20,000 nucleotides of DNA from an uncultured virus (IMG/VR IMGVR_UViG_3300050343_000171) (Duplodnaviria; Heunggongvirae; Uroviricota; Caudoviricetes; Crassvirales). The DNA is taken from the IMG/VR virus record IMGVR_UViG_3300050343_000171. One strand, given 5' to 3'. The notes under the pieces were generated by a model. The model was not told the origin of the DNA and ran no database searches. It saw nothing but the letters and a program-made list of their open reading frames with translations. Shown piece after piece: positions 10,607 through 20,000 of the stretch. Position 1 is the stretch's first letter, and the number at the start of each line of letters is the position of its first letter. The translations under genes were made by a program, and so were the position numbers.

Positions 10607-12709
10607 ATGGCGGCAACACTTGAATTAAAATATTTCAACTCCTTTTGGTTAAAGAGATTAAAAACAATGGAGCCAGTACGTTCAACTACTACTACAGGTA
10701 TTGTTGCGATAAGTATAACAAATCCTAATCAAACACAATTTAAATTACAACTTGGTAATGATCAAATAAACGTAGGAGATAACGTTCTTAAAAATAATAG
10801 TATTATAACTAAAATTACATCTATACCTAGTGGTGTAGGCCAAACAGATCCTCCTACTATTTTTAATTGCGATAGTTTAGGTTCTACGCTTTTAGCTGTT
10901 GGAGATATTTTAACATTTAAAGTAAGAGCTGGAAATAGTGGAGCTGGTGTTACAGCTATACAGATTAATGCAAGCAAACAAGTTGGTCCTGGCCAAACAG
11001 TTAGTGGATTTCCTACAGCTGGAGGTTCACCTGCTAGTGGTAAAATAATTTCTTACACATACAGCGCAGGTGGTACAACAGATTTTGTTATAGATACACC
11101 TGTCAATGTTGGCACAGGTATATCATTGGATTTTACAGATCTTAATGATTTTTCATACATACCTAAGCTTTATAATGGAGATATTGTGAATGATTGGTAC
11201 ATAGAGGAATCTAGAATAAGAGCTGGTTATAATAACACGTCGGTTGATCTAGGTGTTAAAGCTTATATAGTAGAAGATAATCCACAACAACAGCATAGAT
11301 TTAATTCTATGATATATTCAGGAGTTTTTAACTCTAGAACTGGTGTTAACAATACAAATCAATTTTCTGTTGGAACAGATATAACAAGAAGCTTAAATCC
11401 AATTTACGCATCAATTCAGAAGCTATACGCAGAAGATACAAACTTAATTATATTTCAAGAAGAAAAAGTAAGTAGAGCTTTAATTGATAAAGATGCAATA
11501 TTTTCTGCAGAAGGTATGCCAATTACTACATCTGGAGCACAGGTAATAGGGCAAGTTGTAGGTTATGCAGGAGAATATGGTATATCAAAAGATCCACAAA
11601 GTTTTGCGGTATATGGTTATAGAAAATATTTTACTGACAGAAAAAGAAACTGTGTTTGTAGGTTGTCTAAAGATGGTATAACTGAAATTTCTAGTTACGG
11701 TATGCATGACTTTTTTAGAGATGAATTATCTAAATCTTCAGTAAATAATGTAGTAGGAGCTTGGGACATGCATACTAAAAATTACGTTTTATCTATACAG
11801 CAACAACAAGGTGGTCAAGTTGGCCAAAATGGAGGATCTGCAGCCGCTGCAGGTGATAGTGTAACTGTTACGCTTAACGCACAAATTGGTCCTATTGTAG
11901 CGGGAGATAACATATATAGTTATACTACTTCTGGTCAAATAACAGGAGAATTTTATGGTACTATAACTAGCGTGACAACAATAGGTAGTCCAGGTAATCC
12001 TGCAATTTTTGTTGCTAATTTAACAAAACAAATACCAGCACTTCAGGTTATTATATGTTGGAGAGAGCCATTTTCTACAGTTATGTTTGATGAAACTGTT
12101 TTAGGTTGGACAAGTTTTATAAGCTTTAAACCATCAACAATGATTAGTAGTGGTGCTAATTTTTATTCCACTTCTAGCACTGGATCAGCAGTATATAAGC
12201 ATCATACTCTTAATTCAGATTATCTAAATCAATACGCTAATTTTTATGGTGTTACAAATAATTCATCAGTAACGTTAGTTTTAAATGCAAATCCATCTGT
12301 TGTTAAAAATTTTAAAACAATAAATTATGAAGGCGGTACAGAATGGGAAATGAATTCTTTTACTGCTTCAGAAGTTTCTTCAGCAATTACACCAACGCTT
12401 AGTTCAACAAACGTTAAAACTACAGGATTACCTGTTTTTAAATATTATCAACCCTTAACTTTAAATGATTTAGAAACTAGTTTATGGGCTAATACTTTTA
12501 AAAGAAAAGAAAATAAATATTTTGCTAATATAGTAAATAGTACAGAAGTACAAAACGCTGAGGTTATATTTGGTCAAAACATAGGTGGAGTAAAAGGATT
12601 TTTTGCTGAAACTAAATTTGTATTAGATAATAATAAAGGTAACGTTGGAGGTTATGGTAAAAAAGAATTATTTTCTGTGTCTTCTGAAATAGTAGAATCA
12701 TCATATTAA
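10607..12709 (+). CDS. Tail stabilisation/nozzle protein, C-terminal part, 700 aa
   Basis: Beta-propeller-like motifs SIQKLYAEDTNLIIFQEEKVSRALIDKDAIF, YAGEYGISKDPQSFAVYGYRKYFTD, CRLSKDGITEISSYGMHDFFRD, GWTSFISF, KNFKTINYEG and a terminal ELFSVSSE. Confidence 0.7.
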   Translation: MAATLELKYFNSFWLKRLKTMEPVRSTTTTGIVAISITNPNQTQFKLQLGNDQINVGDNVLKNNSIITKITSIPSGVGQTDPPTIFNCDSLGSTLLAVGDILTFKVRAGNSGAGVTAIQINASKQVGPGQTVSGFPTAGGSPASGKIISYTYSAGGTTDFVIDTPVNVGTGISLDFTDLNDFSYIPKLYNGDIVNDWYIEESRIRAGYNNTSVDLGVKAYIVEDNPQQQHRFNSMIYSGVFNSRTGVNNTNQFSVGTDITRSLNPIYASIQKLYAEDTNLIIFQEEKVSRALIDKDAIFSAEGMPITTSGAQVIGQVVGYAGEYGISKDPQSFAVYGYRKYFTDRKRNCVCRLSKDGITEISSYGMHDFFRDELSKSSVNNVVGAWDMHTKNYVLSIQQQQGGQVGQNGGSAAAAGDSVTVTLNAQIGPIVAGDNIYSYTTSGQITGEFYGTITSVTTIGSPGNPAIFVANLTKQIPALQVIICWREPFSTVMFDETVLGWTSFISFKPSTMISSGANFYSTSSTGSAVYKHHTLNSDYLNQYANFYGVTNNSSVTLVLNANPSVVKNFKTINYEGGTEWEMNSFTASEVSSAITPTLSSTNVKTTGLPVFKYYQPLTLNDLETSLWANTFKRKENKYFANIVNSTEVQNAEVIFGQNIGGVKGFFAETKFVLDNNKGNVGGYGKKELFSVSSEIVESSY

Positions 12710-13120
12710 ATGAAATTAAATATAAGAAAATTAAAAGATTCTGATTGGAATACTTTAGTAGAACTTTGGAATGGTTGGCCTGAATGGGTTAATCATCCTA
12801 CAAAAGATATGTTGCCAGAAAATGGTACAGGTGGTTTTATAGTTGAAAAAAATAAAACACCTATTGTAGCTGGATTTATGTATACAACAAATTCTAAAGT
12901 TGCTTGGTTAGAGTGGATTGTTTCTAATGTAAACTACAAAAGCAAAGATAAAAATGATGCTATAAAATTATTAATCGCAGGAATAGAACATGTAGCAAAA
13001 GAAAGTGGTTTTAAAATTATACTTAGCATTGGAAGAAATAAAAACTTAATAAACACTCACAAAGAAATAGGTTATCAAGTAGATGATAAACCATCTTATG
13101 AAATAATAAAAATAATTTAA
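12710..13120 (+). CDS. GNAT-fold (acetyltransferase-like) virion assembly protein, 136 aa
   Basis: GNAT pattern IRKLKDSDW...GFIVEKNKTPIVAGFMY...AWLEWIVSNVNY...LLIAGIEHVAKESGFKIILS...HKEIGY. Sits between nozzle and ejection genes, as T7 gp13 and P22 gp14 do. The start abuts the upstream stop (TAAATG). Confidence 0.75.
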   Translation: MKLNIRKLKDSDWNTLVELWNGWPEWVNHPTKDMLPENGTGGFIVEKNKTPIVAGFMYTTNSKVAWLEWIVSNVNYKSKDKNDAIKLLIAGIEHVAKESGFKIILSIGRNKNLINTHKEIGYQVDDKPSYEIIKII

Positions 13121-15860: not shown

Positions 15861-18800
15861 ATGACTATATACAAGTACAAAGATTTTACTTATTCTCAAG
15901 AAGAAATTGACGAAAAAGTTAATAGCTTAGGAACTACTTTAGAAGAATATTTAATAAAAAATCCTGAAATAAAAGCTGAAAAAGAAAACGAAGAAATAAT
16001 TGTTGATGAAGAAGTTTCTCCAGATTTTCAAACGGACACCGCAACAAGCGCGGATGTGGTGTCGACAGATGTTGTAGCGCCAATAGTGAATACGGAATTA
16101 GACTTGGTAGATACTTCTTCGGTTTCATCAGATCCTAATGTTGTTTTAAGTAAAAAAGAATTTGAAAGCATACTTCCTGAAGGTGAAGATGTTGCTAATG
16201 AAGACAATATAAAAAGAGATTTAAACTCTATATTTAAAACCAAAGGTGTTGGAGTAAAAGTAGATATACCATTTAAACCAGGTCTTGATGTAATTTCATT
16301 AACTAATATTGAAACTGGAGAAACAACAGAAATACCTTTGTTTAAAAATGTACGAGGAAATACTCAAGGCTCAATGCAGTTAATTAAAAACCCTGAAGCT
16401 TATGATCAAATAGCTGAGTTTTTAAAAAATAATAGTAAAACATCTAGTCTTGTAGGTAATGTTTACAAGAACACGGGTCTTGCTCCAGAAGATTATTTTA
16501 CAGATGAACAACCAGATTTTAATCCAAATATGGATTCTGTTTCTACTCAAATAGAGCTATCGGACAGTTCTAGTGCTGTTAAATACGATGCTGATCAGAT
16601 GAATGCTATAGCTGATAATGCTGCAGAAAACTTTATTAATGCTTTTAAAGATCCTAGCATTGTAGGTTTAAACCTTAAAGATGATAGAATTGCCAACTAT
16701 AATTACAGCGATGATGAAATGAATAAACTTATTGATGCTGTTTATGAAGATGTTAAATTAGACACTGAATTAAATTTTTCTAAAAGAGATTTTGCAAAAC
16801 TATATGGAACAAAAAGTAATTTAATAAATACTTTTAAAAGAACTGCAGCGATAGAAGAAACTAGAAATAATATTTATAAAAATAATAAAGAATATTCTCT
16901 TGAATCAAGAACTGATTTTAAAAACGAATCACATGCTGCTAGATTAAAAGATACAAATGAATTTGAAACAAAACTATACGAAATTAATAGATCTATATTA
17001 ACTACAAATAAAAAAATTAGTGACTTAAAAAGTCAATTGCTTCAAGGTCCACCTGAAAAAGTTTCTAATGGAGACAATTTTGATGAAAAAAAATGGTATG
17101 ATAGCATTCAAATTCAAATAGAAACAGAACAAGATAAGATTAAAAGTTTTGGTAAACAAATAAATACTAATGCTAGGCTTGCCGCAAAAGCTTACGCTAA
17201 CTCAGAATCAAGACAAATTCAAACCCCAGGTGGAATTCTTAAAACTATAGGTTATAAAGAAGCGTACGATCAAAAATACAAAGAATTATCAGATTTAAAT
17301 TTCGTTAGTGGTAAAGATGCTTTTACTAGAGCTGAGGAAAGAAAAACAAAAGGAAACATATATAATCAAAGTTATGATTCAATGCAGTCTTCTCTTTCAG
17401 ATTACATAACTGGATTAAGAGTTATAGATAGAAGTTTAACAACTCAAGAGGGCGCAGAATTATTTGCAGACACAAAGTATACTGAAAAACTAGATATACT
17501 GACTGATGGTAGAAATGAAAATATTAGATTTAAATTTGGAGCAGTTCCTTATAGTAAAAAATCTATGATGAGTTATCATGGTTTTACTGCAGATGAAAAA
17601 ACTGGTTATTATGATATTTCTGTTTTTGACTATCAAAGACTTTTGGGTAATACCTTGACTACAACTATAATTAGCGACGACGATAAAAACAAAATAAAAA
17701 TATTTAAAGATAATTTAGAAGCTGTTGATGGAGAGCTTGATGCTGTTTGGGAAACTATTTATTTAAACAAAGATATTCAAAACATAAAATCAGATAGTAA
17801 TCTTGCTATTTTTGGTGGTGCTGCTATAGAAGCTTTAGCTGATACTGTTGGCCTTGATTATGACGCAGGAGGTACGATACAATTAAAAAGAAATGTTGAG
17901 GCCCTTAATTTAGAATACAACGAGGTATATGCGCAAGACATTATAGATGGTAAAATGCCTGCCGCACAGTTTACTCCTGAGCAATTAGAAGCATTAAAAA
18001 TTACTTTTGGTCCAACTTTTGCTGAAATGGCTGGAGGATTTGTACCATTGTTTGGTGAAATTATGGCTTTAACAGCTGTAACAGGAGGTGCTATGAATTA
18101 TTTAGGCGCTGCTAAATGGATACAACAAGCATTAAAATCTGGATCAACTTGGGAAAAACTTAGCGCTACAATGGTTACAGGTGGTGTTGAAGAAGCAAAA
18201 ATGAGGTTGTTAGGTTTTCCACCTGGAACTGGAGCTATATTTGGTGTTAGTGGTGTGTTAGCCAGAGGAGTTAGAATATCAAACTCTGCTGGAGGACAAT
18301 CAGTTATGGATCCATTTTTTCAAAACGGAATAAAAACAGCTGTAATGGGTGTAGCGGCTTCCGAAGCTAGTCATATTTTAGAAAAACAAATAGAAGATTT
18401 AAAAGGAAACGAAAATTTCATGGCTGCATTTAATGAGCTTTATGGAGACATGGACGAAGTATCTAAAAGAGTTGCTTTAAATGGTTTATTATTTGCTAGT
18501 ACTGGTGTTTTTCACATGAAAGGAACTGATTTTATTGGAACAAATCAAATAAATAAAACAATAAGAGATTTATATACTAAAAGAATTGCTTTAACAAAAG
18601 AAGCTAAACTAACTGGCCTTGAAGGTAAAACACTAGAAATGGTCGATAGAAAGCTAACTAATAAAGAAAAAAAATTAGTAAAATCTTATGATCAATCAAT
18701 AAACAATTTACAAAAAGTTGTTGAACTTAGAAATGGTGGTGCTTTAATTAGTATAGATGATCCAAACTTACAAAAAACTTTACAAACAAAGTCAATGGAT

Positions 18801-20000
18801 CCAATCACTAATATTCTAAAAAAAGGTGGTGGTGATATTAAATCAGGCGTTTTAACTGTTGTTTCAGATGCAAAAGTTGCAAGAGAAAAATTATGGGATG
18901 CTGATAAAGGTGTGGAAGTTCCTGCTAGATTTAATTCGATCTTCGGAAATGGAAAATATGAAGTATTAGTTAATAAAAGATTGGCTAATAAAATGATAGA
19001 AGAAGGGGTTGTTGGTAGTATTCAAGATTTAGTTAATCATGAAATGACTCACTACGTTAGAAGTGTTACTAATAAAAAATTTCCTAATTCTCAACCTAGA
19101 ATTGTAGGTGATGTTATGAACAGACTACCTAAAATGAGTCCTGAAAGTATTGAAGCAGCTGGACTTCCTAAAGGAGGCTTAAGAAGGTTTAGAGTAATAA
19201 TGGAAAAAGCGTATGAAAAAGATGGTGTTGCTATGTCTGAAAATATGTCAAAAGAAGAGCAGTTAGCTTATGTAGTTCAAATATTTTCTAGACCAGAGTT
19301 ATATTATACAGCTGAAGCCCCTAATTTTATTACTGAAGTAATAAAAGATATTAAAACAAACTTTGATCTTGTAGGTTATAAAGGTAATCCTCCCACAAAA
19401 GCTTCGGAAATACAAAGTTATTTCTTTGAAGCATTAAGGGAAATGAAAACTGGTAAAGCTCAGAAATTTGTTGACATGTTAGCGCCAGAGATGAATGCTT
19501 TTAAAGACAGAAACATACAGTTTGTAGAAAGAGGTAATGGAACTATAGGTATTGTAGTAGATGAAAAAACTACACAAAGAGATTCTAAATTAATTGAAGC
19601 TGAAGAAACTGCGGTTAAAAAAGAAAGCTACACTGTAACTAACGAACTGTTTAAAGATAGAAAAGGTTGGAATGACGGTAAACCTACAAAAGAATTTTTA
19701 AAGACTTTAGAAAACGAAAAAGATAAAGCTTTAATATTAAAAGCTGCACAACCTGTTTTTGCGGCTTCAATGAAAAGATTGTATACAAGAACTTTAGAGG
19801 GTAATCGTGAGGGTGTAACTTATGAGCAGTTTAAGAAAGATCTTGAACAAGAGTATTATCAAAGATTTTTAGACTATGATGTTTCAAAAGTTGGGGAAAA
19901 AAATTTGCCAATAGCCGAACAAACAAGTAATTTATATAACTTAAGAATAAACAAACTGGGTACTGAGCAGTTTAAGCAAACCAGCTTCACATCAAGTATT
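15861..20000 (+). CDS. Giant putative ejection/polyvalent virion protein (at least 1380 aa, 3'-truncated) with a hydrophobic segment and a zincin HExxH motif
   Basis: Translated by hand: MTIYKYKDFTYSQEEIDEKV... with no stop up to the window end, which explains its absence from the ORF track. The start context TAAATTATG matches the genes at 4152 and 10607. HEMTH at 19038-19052. Confidence 0.85.
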   Translation, partial: MTIYKYKDFTYSQEEIDEKVNSLGTTLEEYLIKNPEIKAEKENEEIIVDEEVSPDFQTDTATSADVVSTDVVAPIVNTELDLVDTSSVSSDPNVVLSKKEFESILPEGEDVANEDNIKRDLNSIFKTKGVGVKVDIPFKPGLDVISLTNIETGETTEIPLFKNVRGNTQGSMQLIKNPEAYDQIAEFLKNNSKTSSLVGNVYKNTGLAPEDYFTDEQPDFNPNMDSVSTQIELSDSSSAVKYDADQMNAIADNAAENFINAFKDPSIVGLNLKDDRIANYNYSDDEMNKLIDAVYEDVKLDTELNFSKRDFAKLYGTKSNLINTFKRTAAIEETRNNIYKNNKEYSLESRTDFKNESHAARLKDTNEFETKLYEINRSILTTNKKISDLKSQLLQGPPEKVSNGDNFDEKKWYDSIQIQIETEQDKIKSFGKQINTNARLAAKAYANSESRQIQTPGGILKTIGYKEAYDQKYKELSDLNFVSGKDAFTRAEERKTKGNIYNQSYDSMQSSLSDYITGLRVIDRSLTTQEGAELFADTKYTEKLDILTDGRNENIRFKFGAVPYSKKSMMSYHGFTADEKTGYYDISVFDYQRLLGNTLTTTIISDDDKNKIKIFKDNLEAVDGELDAVWETIYLNKDIQNIKSDSNLAIFGGAAIEALADTVGLDYDAGGTIQLKRNVEALNLEYNEVYAQDIIDGKMPAAQFTPEQLEALKITFGPTFAEMAGGFVPLFGEIMALTAVTGGAMNYLGAAKWIQQALKSGSTWEKLSATMVTGGVEEAKMRLLGFPPGTGAIFGVSGVLARGVRISNSAGGQSVMDPFFQNGIKTAVMGVAASEASHILEKQIEDLKGNENFMAAFNELYGDMDEVSKRVALNGLLFASTGVFHMKGTDFIGTNQINKTIRDLYTKRIALTKEAKLTGLEGKTLEMVDRKLTNKEKKLVKSYDQSINNLQKVVELRNGGALISIDDPNLQKTLQTKSMDPITNILKKGGGDIKSGVLTVVSDAKVAREKLWDADKGVEVPARFNSIFGNGKYEVLVNKRLANKMIEEGVVGSIQDLVNHEMTHYVRSVTNKKFPNSQPRIVGDVMNRLPKMSPESIEAAGLPKGGLRRFRVIMEKAYEKDGVAMSENMSKEEQLAYVVQIFSRPELYYTAEAPNFITEVIKDIKTNFDLVGYKGNPPTKASEIQSYFFEALREMKTGKAQKFVDMLAPEMNAFKDRNIQFVERGNGTIGIVVDEKTTQRDSKLIEAEETAVKKESYTVTNELFKDRKGWNDGKPTKEFLKTLENEKDKALILKAAQPVFAASMKRLYTRTLEGNREGVTYEQFKKDLEQEYYQRFLDYDVSKVGEKNLPIAEQTSNLYNLRINKLGTEQFKQTSFTSSI
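16022..16080 (+). promoter_or_regulatory. Candidate -1 ribosomal frameshift cassette (shifty site, spacer, stem-loop/pseudoknot)
   Basis: A_GAT_TTT at 16022-16028 in the 0 frame, 6-nt spacer CAAACG, and a 9-bp stem GACACCGCA (16035-16043)/TGTGGTGTC (16055-16063). Loop GCGC (16048-16051) can pair with GCGC (16077-16080). Confidence 0.55.
16028..16138 (+). CDS. Overlapping -1 frame segment (36 aa), putative transframe C-terminus
   Basis: SNGHRNKRGCGVDRCCSANSEYGIRLGRYFFGFIRS* (TAA 16136-16138). The frame is closed upstream by TGA 16007-16009 and contains no ATG. Confidence 0.5.
   Translation, partial: SNGHRNKRGCGVDRCCSANSEYGIRLGRYFFGFIRS

Follow-up and report, generated by a model that had tools for sequence, protein, structure and literature searches.

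A putative programmed −1 ribosomal frameshift near the 5′ end of a giant virion-protein gene, conserved among relatives of Flavobacteriia podophages

Introduction

Does the gene for a giant virion protein of an uncultured phage also encode, near its 5′ end, a short second protein that would be made only by ribosomes slipping back one base? This question is raised by a 20,000-nucleotide (nt) stretch of DNA (IMG/VR record IMGVR_UViG_3300050343_000171, hereafter the window), in which a preliminary description had proposed a programmed −1 frameshift shortly after the start of a giant open reading frame (ORF) at position 15861. That proposal is upheld by the homologues that we collected, which keep an in-phase slip site, the spacer, covarying stems, an open −1 frame, and a conserved −1 peptide. 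Their comparison shows that selection has maintained both the signal and the −1 peptide across a phage family related to Flavobacteriia podophages; that the slippage is ribosomal, how efficient it might be, and any role of the short protein are what we infer from it. We have little doubt that the family encodes a −1 peptide reached by frameshifting. The site itself is very probably a programmed −1 ribosomal frameshift signal, and there is good reason to expect that the window's own copy shifts, probably at low efficiency.

In the mechanism that we propose, ribosomes would start at ATG 15861 and reach GAU_UUU at codons 55–56, where an H-type pseudoknot 6 nt downstream (16035–43/16055–63; 16048–51/16077–80) would hold them. 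A minority would slip back one base, the A-site tRNA-Phe re-pairing from UUU to UUU, and these slipped ribosomes would read 36 codons of the −1 frame before stopping at TAA 16136. Two products would result with the same 56-residue N terminus, made of a small folded domain and an acidic linker: a virion protein of ~2,950 residues and a protein of 92 residues. The features of the locus are as follows.

15861–20000, plus strand: 5′ part (1,380 codons, frame 0) of the giant virion-protein gene, which starts at ATG 15861 and runs off the window
15861–15983, plus strand: N-terminal domain (residues 1–41), β-β-α-α-β as predicted by AlphaFold2, expected in both giant and short protein
16007–16009, plus strand: TGA stop of the −1 frame, upstream bound of the −1 open window (sequence check)
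16022–16028, plus strand: putative shift site A_GAU_UUU (AGATTTT), with the U_UUU tetramer at 16025–16028 as presumed functional core; homologous in position to G_GGA_AAG, G_GAA_AAG, or G_GAU_UUU of relatives
16029–16034, plus strand: spacer CAAACG, 6 nt (ACAAAC-like and 5–8 nt long in relatives)
16028–16135, plus strand: −1 tail of the predicted transframe product, 36 codons, SNGHRNKRGCGVDRCCSANSEYGIRLGRYFFGFIRS (translation)
16035–16043, plus strand: 5′ arm of stem 1, GACACCGCA, pairing with 16055–16063
16048–16051, plus strand: 5′ arm of stem 2, GCGC, in the loop of stem 1, pairing with 16077–16080
16055–16063, plus strand: 3′ arm of stem 1, TGTGGTGTC, pairing with 16035–16043
16077–16080, plus strand: 3′ arm of stem 2, GCGC (5–8 base pairs [bp] in relatives, e.g., GGGTGC with GCACCC)
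16088–16123, plus strand: conserved −1 motif EYGIRLGRYFFG, a predicted β-hairpin (comparison and structure prediction); the same bases read NTELDLVDTSSV in frame 0
16136–16138, plus strand: TAA stop of the −1 frame (sequence check)

Results

The elements named in the preliminary description are present in the window. AGATTTT lies in phase with the giant gene, and the −1 frame opens only after TGA 16007, has no ATG, and runs for 36 codons; GTG and TTG are absent too, and in all 11 sequences compared the part of the −1 window that precedes the motif is free of these three start codons. Recomputing the transframe product gives 92 residues, 56 shared and 36 new. The 9-bp stem 1 (−14 kcal/mol) is found 6 nt past the heptamer with a GCGC pairing from its loop, and 30 of the 50 bases at 16032–16081 are G or C, which is the 60% originally claimed. 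The accompanying caveat that the heptamer is noncanonical also stands: it departs from the X_XXY_YYZ form, U_UUU is in phase at 16025–28, and, because only the A-site tRNA can re-pair, the site would work at best as a U_UUU tetramer. Such tetramers do have precedents, since six tetramers, each set upstream of the IS3 pseudoknot, gave 0.26–5.6% shifting in E. coli, with A_AAG far above U_UUC and U_UUC above U_UUU, and insertion sequence (IS) elements naturally use U_UU[U,C] (PMC4066793, in part).

The GC-rich patch, said to be full of frame-0 codons rare elsewhere, proved to be the most extreme rare-codon/GC island of the window. Among sliding 17-codon windows across its 11 ORFs (n = 6,328), codons 57–73 rank first both for the lowest mean log relative codon frequency and for the highest GC, and their GC content at third codon positions is matched by three windows only. 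When codons were resampled synonymously 20,000 times with the codon usage of the window, the probability of a −1 frame open for at least 36 codons was ~0.001, and likewise for the relatives L002 and L003. The length of the −1 run, the type of shift site, and the hairpin are each unremarkable or weak when taken singly.

L002 (87% amino acid identity) and L003 (42%) are two DNAs from one metagenome scan. Both read GAG GAT TTT, that is G_GAU_UUU, at the site; their −1 frames are open for 36 and 38 codons, and the −1 motif is the same in the window, L002, and L003 except for an L/I exchange. L002 is a mosaic, in which 308 nt around the start of the giant gene (L002 2149–2456 versus L003 2958–3265) are 94% identical to L003 while the rest, unlike L003, is 93% identical to the window, with a recombination joint at about window position 16120, the end of the dual-coding region. 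The window, L002, and L003 should therefore be counted as roughly two independent lineages. Beyond these, marine virome contigs with unrelated flanks match the window only at 16087/88–16127/32 (40–46 bases, 80–85% identity). They come from two marine runs, one of them a viral metagenome, and one contig is 6,775 nt long with a depth of ~50. Translated in frame 0, the shared 40 bases give NTELDLVDTSSVS, and in the −1 frame they give EYGIRLGRYFFGF; it was this short match that led to the wider family.

We sampled that family in two ways. First, a search for the −1 motif alone gave nine IMG/VR contigs representing eight distinct loci. In all nine, a long ORF begins 59–83 codons before the motif, the motif lies in its −1 frame, and the −1 open window spans 37–48 codons and closes 3–6 codons past the motif. 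An in-phase GGGAAAN is found in seven of the eight distinct loci (GGGAAAG in five, GGGAAAT and GGGAAAC in one each), the eighth having GGAAAAG; across the 7,495 ORF codons of these loci, GGGAAAN occurs in phase seven times, always at the shift site. G is also the last base of the codon preceding GGA, irrespective of the residue specified (Glu, Lys, Pro, or Leu, as GAG, AAG, CCG, or TTG). Second, IMG/VR was searched with an alignment of the 39 N-terminal residues, which are encoded upstream of the slip site and were used in place of an alignment of the upstream 273-residue protein that was too divergent as a query. This yielded 37 loci, or 30 new ones after removal of four seed contigs and three exact duplicates.

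The motif [YF]G[IVF]x[VILFA]G[RKSGN][YWFHC]F[FI]G is present in the −1 frame of 27 of these 30 loci, 15–22 codons past an in-phase site and within tails of 31–40 codons; the −1 stop is kept 3–9 codons past it. The −1 frame thus stays open after the site in homologues, and for a constant length. The in-phase sites, three of which (in L038, L039, and L051) were corrected by eye from the pick of the script, are GGGAAAG in 16 loci, GGAAAAG in six, AAAAAAG in one, GGATTTT in one (L048), ACTAAAG in two, and AGTAAAG in one. A canonical heptamer thereby occupies the homologous position in seven of eight motif-sampled loci and, as GGGAAAG or AAAAAAG, in 17 of 27 loci of the N-terminal sample. The unrelated L048 uses G_GAU_UUU independently, on a different N-terminal type. 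The expectation that homologues would conserve the shifty heptamer is thus borne out for its in-phase position but not for its identity, which is mostly G_GGA_AAG rather than the A_GAU_UUU of the window. In the lineage of the window, (G/A)_GAU_UUU is best read as having taken the place of G_GGA_AAG, the canonical heptamer of the family, with the distance to stem 1 unchanged. Two other searches of viral and genome contig collections returned nothing: frame-0 N-terminal queries found no relatives, and the exact nucleotide pattern of the stem region had no occurrence.

The structure downstream of the site is conserved by compensatory change. A spacer of 5–8 nt separates heptamer and stem 1 in all 38 sequences, and L002 and L003 keep the stem of the window through C-to-U changes that leave G:U pairs. 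In an 11-sequence MAFFT alignment, 92.5% of stem 1 cells are paired and five of eight pairs have changed on both sides; none of 500 shuffles reaches its paired cells, its both-side-changed cells, or its covariation score, and 22 of 500 reach five double-changed pairs. Stem 2, formed by GGGUGC-like loop bases with GCACCC-like bases 7–21 nt downstream, has 80% of its cells paired and three of five pairs changed on both sides, including one double change between the window (GCGC/GCGC) and L002 (AGUGC/GCACU). Controls in which the arms were slid pair 15–67% for stem 1 alone (versus 92.5%) and 18–56% for both stems (versus 87.4%). A MAFFT alignment of all 38 sequences put the stem arms out of register between clades, and pairs were not counted on it. 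An alignment-free scan of these 38 sequences, with 30 rounds of dinucleotide shuffles as control, found a stem 1 of at least 7 bp within 5–8 nt of the heptamer in 32 (shuffle mean 4.3), a stem 2 of at least five Watson-Crick pairs in 27 (shuffle mean 3.2), and both in 22 (shuffle mean 1.2, maximum 4). The arms are wholly different between clades—GACACC/GGTGTC, GGTGTTGC/GTAACACC, CCACAAC/GTTGTGG, CCTGCTGC/GCAGCAGG, and GCCGTTG/CAACGGC—and 11-bp hairpins of −19.8 to −22.7 kcal/mol occur in L004, L006, and L007. Hence the covariation of stems 1 and 2 that the preliminary description had called for is found in homologues, with compensatory changes in both stems above the level of shuffles. In the L034–L037 clade (locus 1617–1709), which combines GGGAAAG with the −1 motif and whose tail reads ATGRGRGRDHRKPKSKARYGFVFGSWFFG, no clear stem 1 lies within 5–8 nt; the stimulator of this clade may differ.

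Selection on the overlap bears on the −1 frame. A DNA pattern degenerate for the −1 peptide EYGIRxGRYFFG retrieved nine viral (IMG/VR) contigs, and a looser pattern for the frame-0 peptide retrieved one. Over the motif region of 27 loci (23 distinct sequences), amino acid identity is 0.653 in the −1 frame versus 0.369 in frame 0, and base differences at −1 codon positions 1, 2, and 3 are 0.245, 0.176, and 0.538. Single-base codon differences are synonymous versus nonsynonymous in a ratio of 895:322 in the −1 frame versus 183:943 in frame 0, and these counts are tempered by the location of the motif with a −1 regular expression and by the phylogenetic non-independence of pairwise comparisons. 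The amino acid conservation anticipated for the −1 frame is therefore seen in homologues, as motif substitutions that are synonymous in that frame and nonsynonymous in frame 0. By this comparison, the conserved part of the tail appears to be the C-terminal EYGIRxGRYFFG; the Cys-rich first half is poorly conserved, has no Cys in L008, and probably reflects the GC-rich stems.

The same data speak to two explanations that dispense with frameshifting. In one, there would be no second product: frame 0 would encode a conserved acidic peptide, the hairpin would serve some other end, such as mRNA stability or a ribosome pause while the N-terminal domain is handled co-translationally, and the −1 frame would be open merely as a consequence of codons ending in G or C. 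The rare-codon cluster does lie directly after the N-terminal domain, the frame-0 peptide DFQTDTA..ADVVSTDV..NTELD is kept in seven of seven close proteins, and −1 runs of at least 36 codons are not rare in the window (9 of 858). However, this view has to contend with substitutions in the motif that mostly alter frame 0 and spare the −1 frame, with nine contigs for the −1 pattern against one for the frame-0 pattern, and with the restriction of in-phase GGGAAAN to the shift site and of the −1 stop to the 3–9 codons after the motif, and we find it quite improbable. In the other, the constraint would stem from an antisense gene, a minus-strand ORF at 16028–16243 (71 residues, TTG start) that shares the codon phase of the −1 frame. 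It is open in the window, L002, and L003, but variation clusters at the third −1 codon position, which corresponds to the first antisense position, where a change nearly always alters the residue; such a gene would give no rationale for a slip site, a stem, or the position of the stop; nor is its start conserved. We attach almost no weight to it. This ORF ends exactly at the slip site and is most likely open simply because the −1 phase lacks stops.

Whether the slip could occur during transcription is a matter for the cultured relatives, of which we examined four of 85 capsid-related records—one each for Panino, Elemovirus, Callevirus, and MW202828, the Cellulophaga phi13:2/phi46:3/phi19:3 group (24% capsid identity) falling outside this sample. 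All four have an in-phase A9–A11 run at codon 33–64 of the giant gene, followed by a −1 ORF of 28–47 codons with a Lys/Arg-rich and then aromatic tail, and ...IKLGRYSI... in MW202828 and ...WGIRGRKWFIGF... in Panino are recognizably the same motif. RNA polymerase adding or dropping a base would put the −1 frame in phase in a share of the mRNAs, and A-runs of this kind, here at the homologous place, are classic slippage templates (PMC5009743, in part). Moreover, at the A9 run of Panino the N-terminal ORF and the annotated giant ORF differ in phase by one base, either because the run was mis-sequenced or because slippage is required to make the giant protein at all. The A9–A11 runs of cultured relatives could thus work by polymerase slippage. 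This cannot be the route in the window, which has T4 only, and the GGGAAAG of most relatives is likewise too short for it. A covarying pseudoknot 5–8 nt downstream is a hallmark of ribosomal shifting, and one of the RNA-library contigs that cover parts of the region has no indel over 15887–16037, bearing in mind that contigs drop rare variants and reveal neither expression nor strand. For the signal as a whole, transcriptional slippage is accordingly a very poor candidate, and ribosomal frameshifting remains our preferred reading.

In Panino (L014, PP540027.1, 21700–22050, minus strand), the GTG start of the 1,829-residue PANI_CDS0069, annotated as a "tRNA methyltransferase," looks wrong: the N-terminal ORF MEDELMSFEQF... 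begins right after the upstream gene, and a small opposite-strand ORF, CDS0070, has been called over the stretch. A tblastn search of cultured phages with the L006 tail listed 25 records, all with E of at least 6, which is noise.

AlphaFold2, run on an 11-row alignment, gives a predicted local distance difference test score (pLDDT) of 82–89 for residues 1–40 and near 50, that is disordered, for frame-0 residues 42–110, which places the overlap in a predicted disordered linker of the giant protein. Overprinted genes usually sit in linkers. The −1 tail is basic and aromatic, and its last 16 residues (EYGIRLGRYFFGFIR) are predicted to form a β-hairpin (block pLDDT ~87). Distant giant proteins share little past their first 80–90 residues, and this limitation of conservation to the N-terminal part fits an N-terminal module with a common partner. 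We can only guess that the short protein is a fixed-ratio partner or adaptor, acting via the shared N-terminal domain in virion assembly or DNA delivery.

Searches with the two modules returned little. The best PHROG match of the N-terminal 39 residues, phrog_3212, is weak (E = 0.009); it is a family of proteins of unknown function with ~84 residues, a length close to that of the transframe product, and other phages might carry the short protein in a free-standing form. A fold search with the N-terminal model gave Z of at most 3.1, and the ESM Atlas offered no usable match. No candidate for the L006 tail was found among proteins of at least 84 residues, which is weak evidence against an annotated, unshifted fused form.

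Discussion

Several observations weigh against a functional frameshift at this locus, above all in the window. Its heptamer is the weakest of the family, the P-site GAU being unable to re-pair on AGA, and 123 in-phase N_NNU_UUU sites occur within the window's ORFs. Stem 2 has just 4 bp there; the hairpin, with z = −2.7 in a 42-nt context, falls to z of ~0 in contexts of 72–121 nt; and the 36-codon length is, as noted above, within reach of other −1 runs. The −1 tail has no match in PHROGs. Furthermore, three of the 30 loci retrieved by their N terminus (L026, L053, and L054) lack the −1 motif, L053 retaining a degenerate remnant of it behind a −1 stop, and the motif is therefore dispensable in some relatives.

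Some of these points would fit a relic, in which the ancestral frameshift was real but A_GAU_UUU in the window lineage no longer exceeds background and the −1 frame is decaying. Consistent with this, position 1 of the heptamer is A in the window and G in L002, L003, and L048, the window's stem 2 is the shortest, and three relatives have lost the feature entirely. Decay is nevertheless hard to reconcile with a −1 tail that is intact and of normal length (36–38 codons) in the window, L002, and L003, with a motif identical apart from L/I, or with the differences among these three, several of which fall at position 2 of frame-0 codons and leave the −1 residue unchanged. In addition, U_UUU with a pseudoknot does shift in E. 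coli (PMC4066793, in part), and L048 arrived at G_GAU_UUU independently on another N-terminal type. We consider a relic unlikely. Given that the window, L002, and L003 all retain an undamaged tail and motif, and given the independent G_GAU_UUU of L048, it seems instead that the window site still works, probably at low efficiency.

The proposed mechanism is canonical, while the gene, its product, and a G_GAU_UUU-type site in a phage appear new. The closest parallel is the gpG/gpGT tail assembly chaperone of lambda, where a −1 shift in a phage structural module likewise makes two proteins in a fixed ratio with a common N terminus, a type of frameshift that is conserved across tailed phages (PMC5009743, in part). 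There are clear differences. In lambda, ribosomes shift close to the 3′ end and thereby make the longer of the two proteins, whereas in this family the shift would occur at codon 35–57 of ~2,950 and the product would be far shorter; this family also has a covarying pseudoknot, and its gene is that of a giant virion protein of podovirus-like phages rather than of a tape-measure chaperone. The commonest heptamer of the family, G_GGA_AAG, is also that of lambda.

A truncated frameshift product is also made in dnaX (τ/γ), which shifts by −1 in E. coli at A_AAA_AAG with a downstream stem-loop and relies on transcriptional slippage on an A-run in Thermus, an alternation between heptamer plus structure and A-run like that seen among the relatives of the window. 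However, dnaX γ gains about one new residue, whereas products of this family would gain 31–40 with a conserved motif under selection, and the new tail itself is therefore likely to be functional. IS3/IS911 OrfA-OrfAB similarly combine a bacterial-type signal—a heptamer or an A_AAG/U_UUU tetramer—with a downstream pseudoknot (PMC4066793, in part), but there the shift fuses two ORFs into a longer transposase, and these elements have no relation to this family in sequence or function. Finally, plant umbraviruses and dianthoviruses use the site of L002, L003, and L048, from which the window differs by its first base only; pea enation mosaic virus 2, for instance, shifts at G_GAU_UUU (PMC5009743, in part; see also PMC4737148). 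That is a case of eukaryotic ribosomes and RNA viruses in which the shift makes the polymerase, and we found no phage case of this heptamer.

The preliminary description knew of no such frameshift in an ejection gene, and we found no publication of one in the full-text literature. Within that literature, which is to say outside subscription-only papers, there is no description of a frameshift in Cellulophaga/Flavobacterium phages or in internal virion or ejection proteins, and 300,000 characters of a 2016 recoding review contain none of the terms "ejection," "internal virion," or "podovir." If true, our reading would add a third well-supported class of conserved phage structural-gene frameshifts to those of tail chaperones and capsid extensions, and no earlier member of these classes would concern a virion protein that is giant and probably internal or ejected. 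Our reading implies that current annotation misses a small protein in every genome examined, cultured phages included, and this omission would be why the start of the giant gene of Panino was apparently mis-called.

The family would also be a natural experiment in which slippery sites and stimulators have been exchanged and the product kept, which is of use to frameshift predictors, whose training has relied mostly on tail chaperones, and it would offer a testable handle on the loading and deployment of giant internal proteins. A broader proposition, whose chances we see as evenly balanced, is that an unrecognized small virion or assembly protein, composed of an N-terminal docking domain and a basic β-hairpin tail and recoded at the 5′ end of the giant gene, occurs widely in marine and freshwater phages related to Flavobacteriia podophages (Callevirus, Elemovirus, Panino-like, and many uncultured ones). 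Several routes, exchangeable for one another, would lead to it—an H-type pseudoknot after G_GGA_AAG or G_GAA_AAG, a U_UUU tetramer as the first site of the G_GAU_UUU type in a phage, or A9–A11 runs that may act through polymerase slippage—and, by way of the shared N-terminal domain, it would set a fixed stoichiometry with the giant protein.

With a GC content of 32.6%, the window represents the structural module of a phage with AT-rich DNA, and the sequencing runs that contain it are seawater and marine viral metagenomes. Its capsid protein is 36–46% identical to those of Maribacter phage Panino, the Flavobacterium elemo phages (Elemovirus), Cellulophaga phage phi38:1, Calle (Callevirus), and a freshwater podovirus-like genome. 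The giant gene is the last of the module, after a protein with a crAss muzzle-like C-terminal domain (ORF 10607–12709), and its full-length products in six relatives have 2,913–2,964 residues. The preliminary description called it an ejection gene. Gene order after the tail genes, the very large size (~2,950 residues), and a hydrophobic Gly/Ala-rich stretch at residues 720–750 (18018–18150, plus strand) fit internal or ejection proteins of the T7 gp14–16 type, but family matches do not bear the label out: the giant protein hits no Pfam family, its best PHROG match is only 0.028, and its relatives are annotated as "structural protein" only. Because there is neither a Pfam family nor a convincing PHROG, we infer the label from position, size, and hydrophobic segment, which are suggestive only. 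The 273-residue ORF upstream of the giant gene weakly matches a PHROG annotated "pilot protein for DNA ejection" (E = 6e-4). Searches of cultured phages by blastn and tblastn with the region and with the first 500 residues of the giant protein found no match; a promoter and terminator scan gave nothing above expectation, and an Rfam search at E up to 10 gave subthreshold chance matches only.

Two observations concern other parts of the module. The giant protein carries an HExxH sequence, HEMTH at residue 1060 (19038–19052, plus strand), and HEMTH, HEMVH, HEFAH, or HEYAH is found in six relatives; it is possibly a zinc-peptidase-like site, with no family match in support. Between the muzzle-like gene and the putative internal proteins lies a 136-residue ORF (12710–13120, plus strand) that matches phrog_17252 (E = 3e-32). 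The ORF at the same place in MW202828 is annotated as an N-terminal acetyltransferase subunit, and a small acetyltransferase-like gene is unusual in a structural module.

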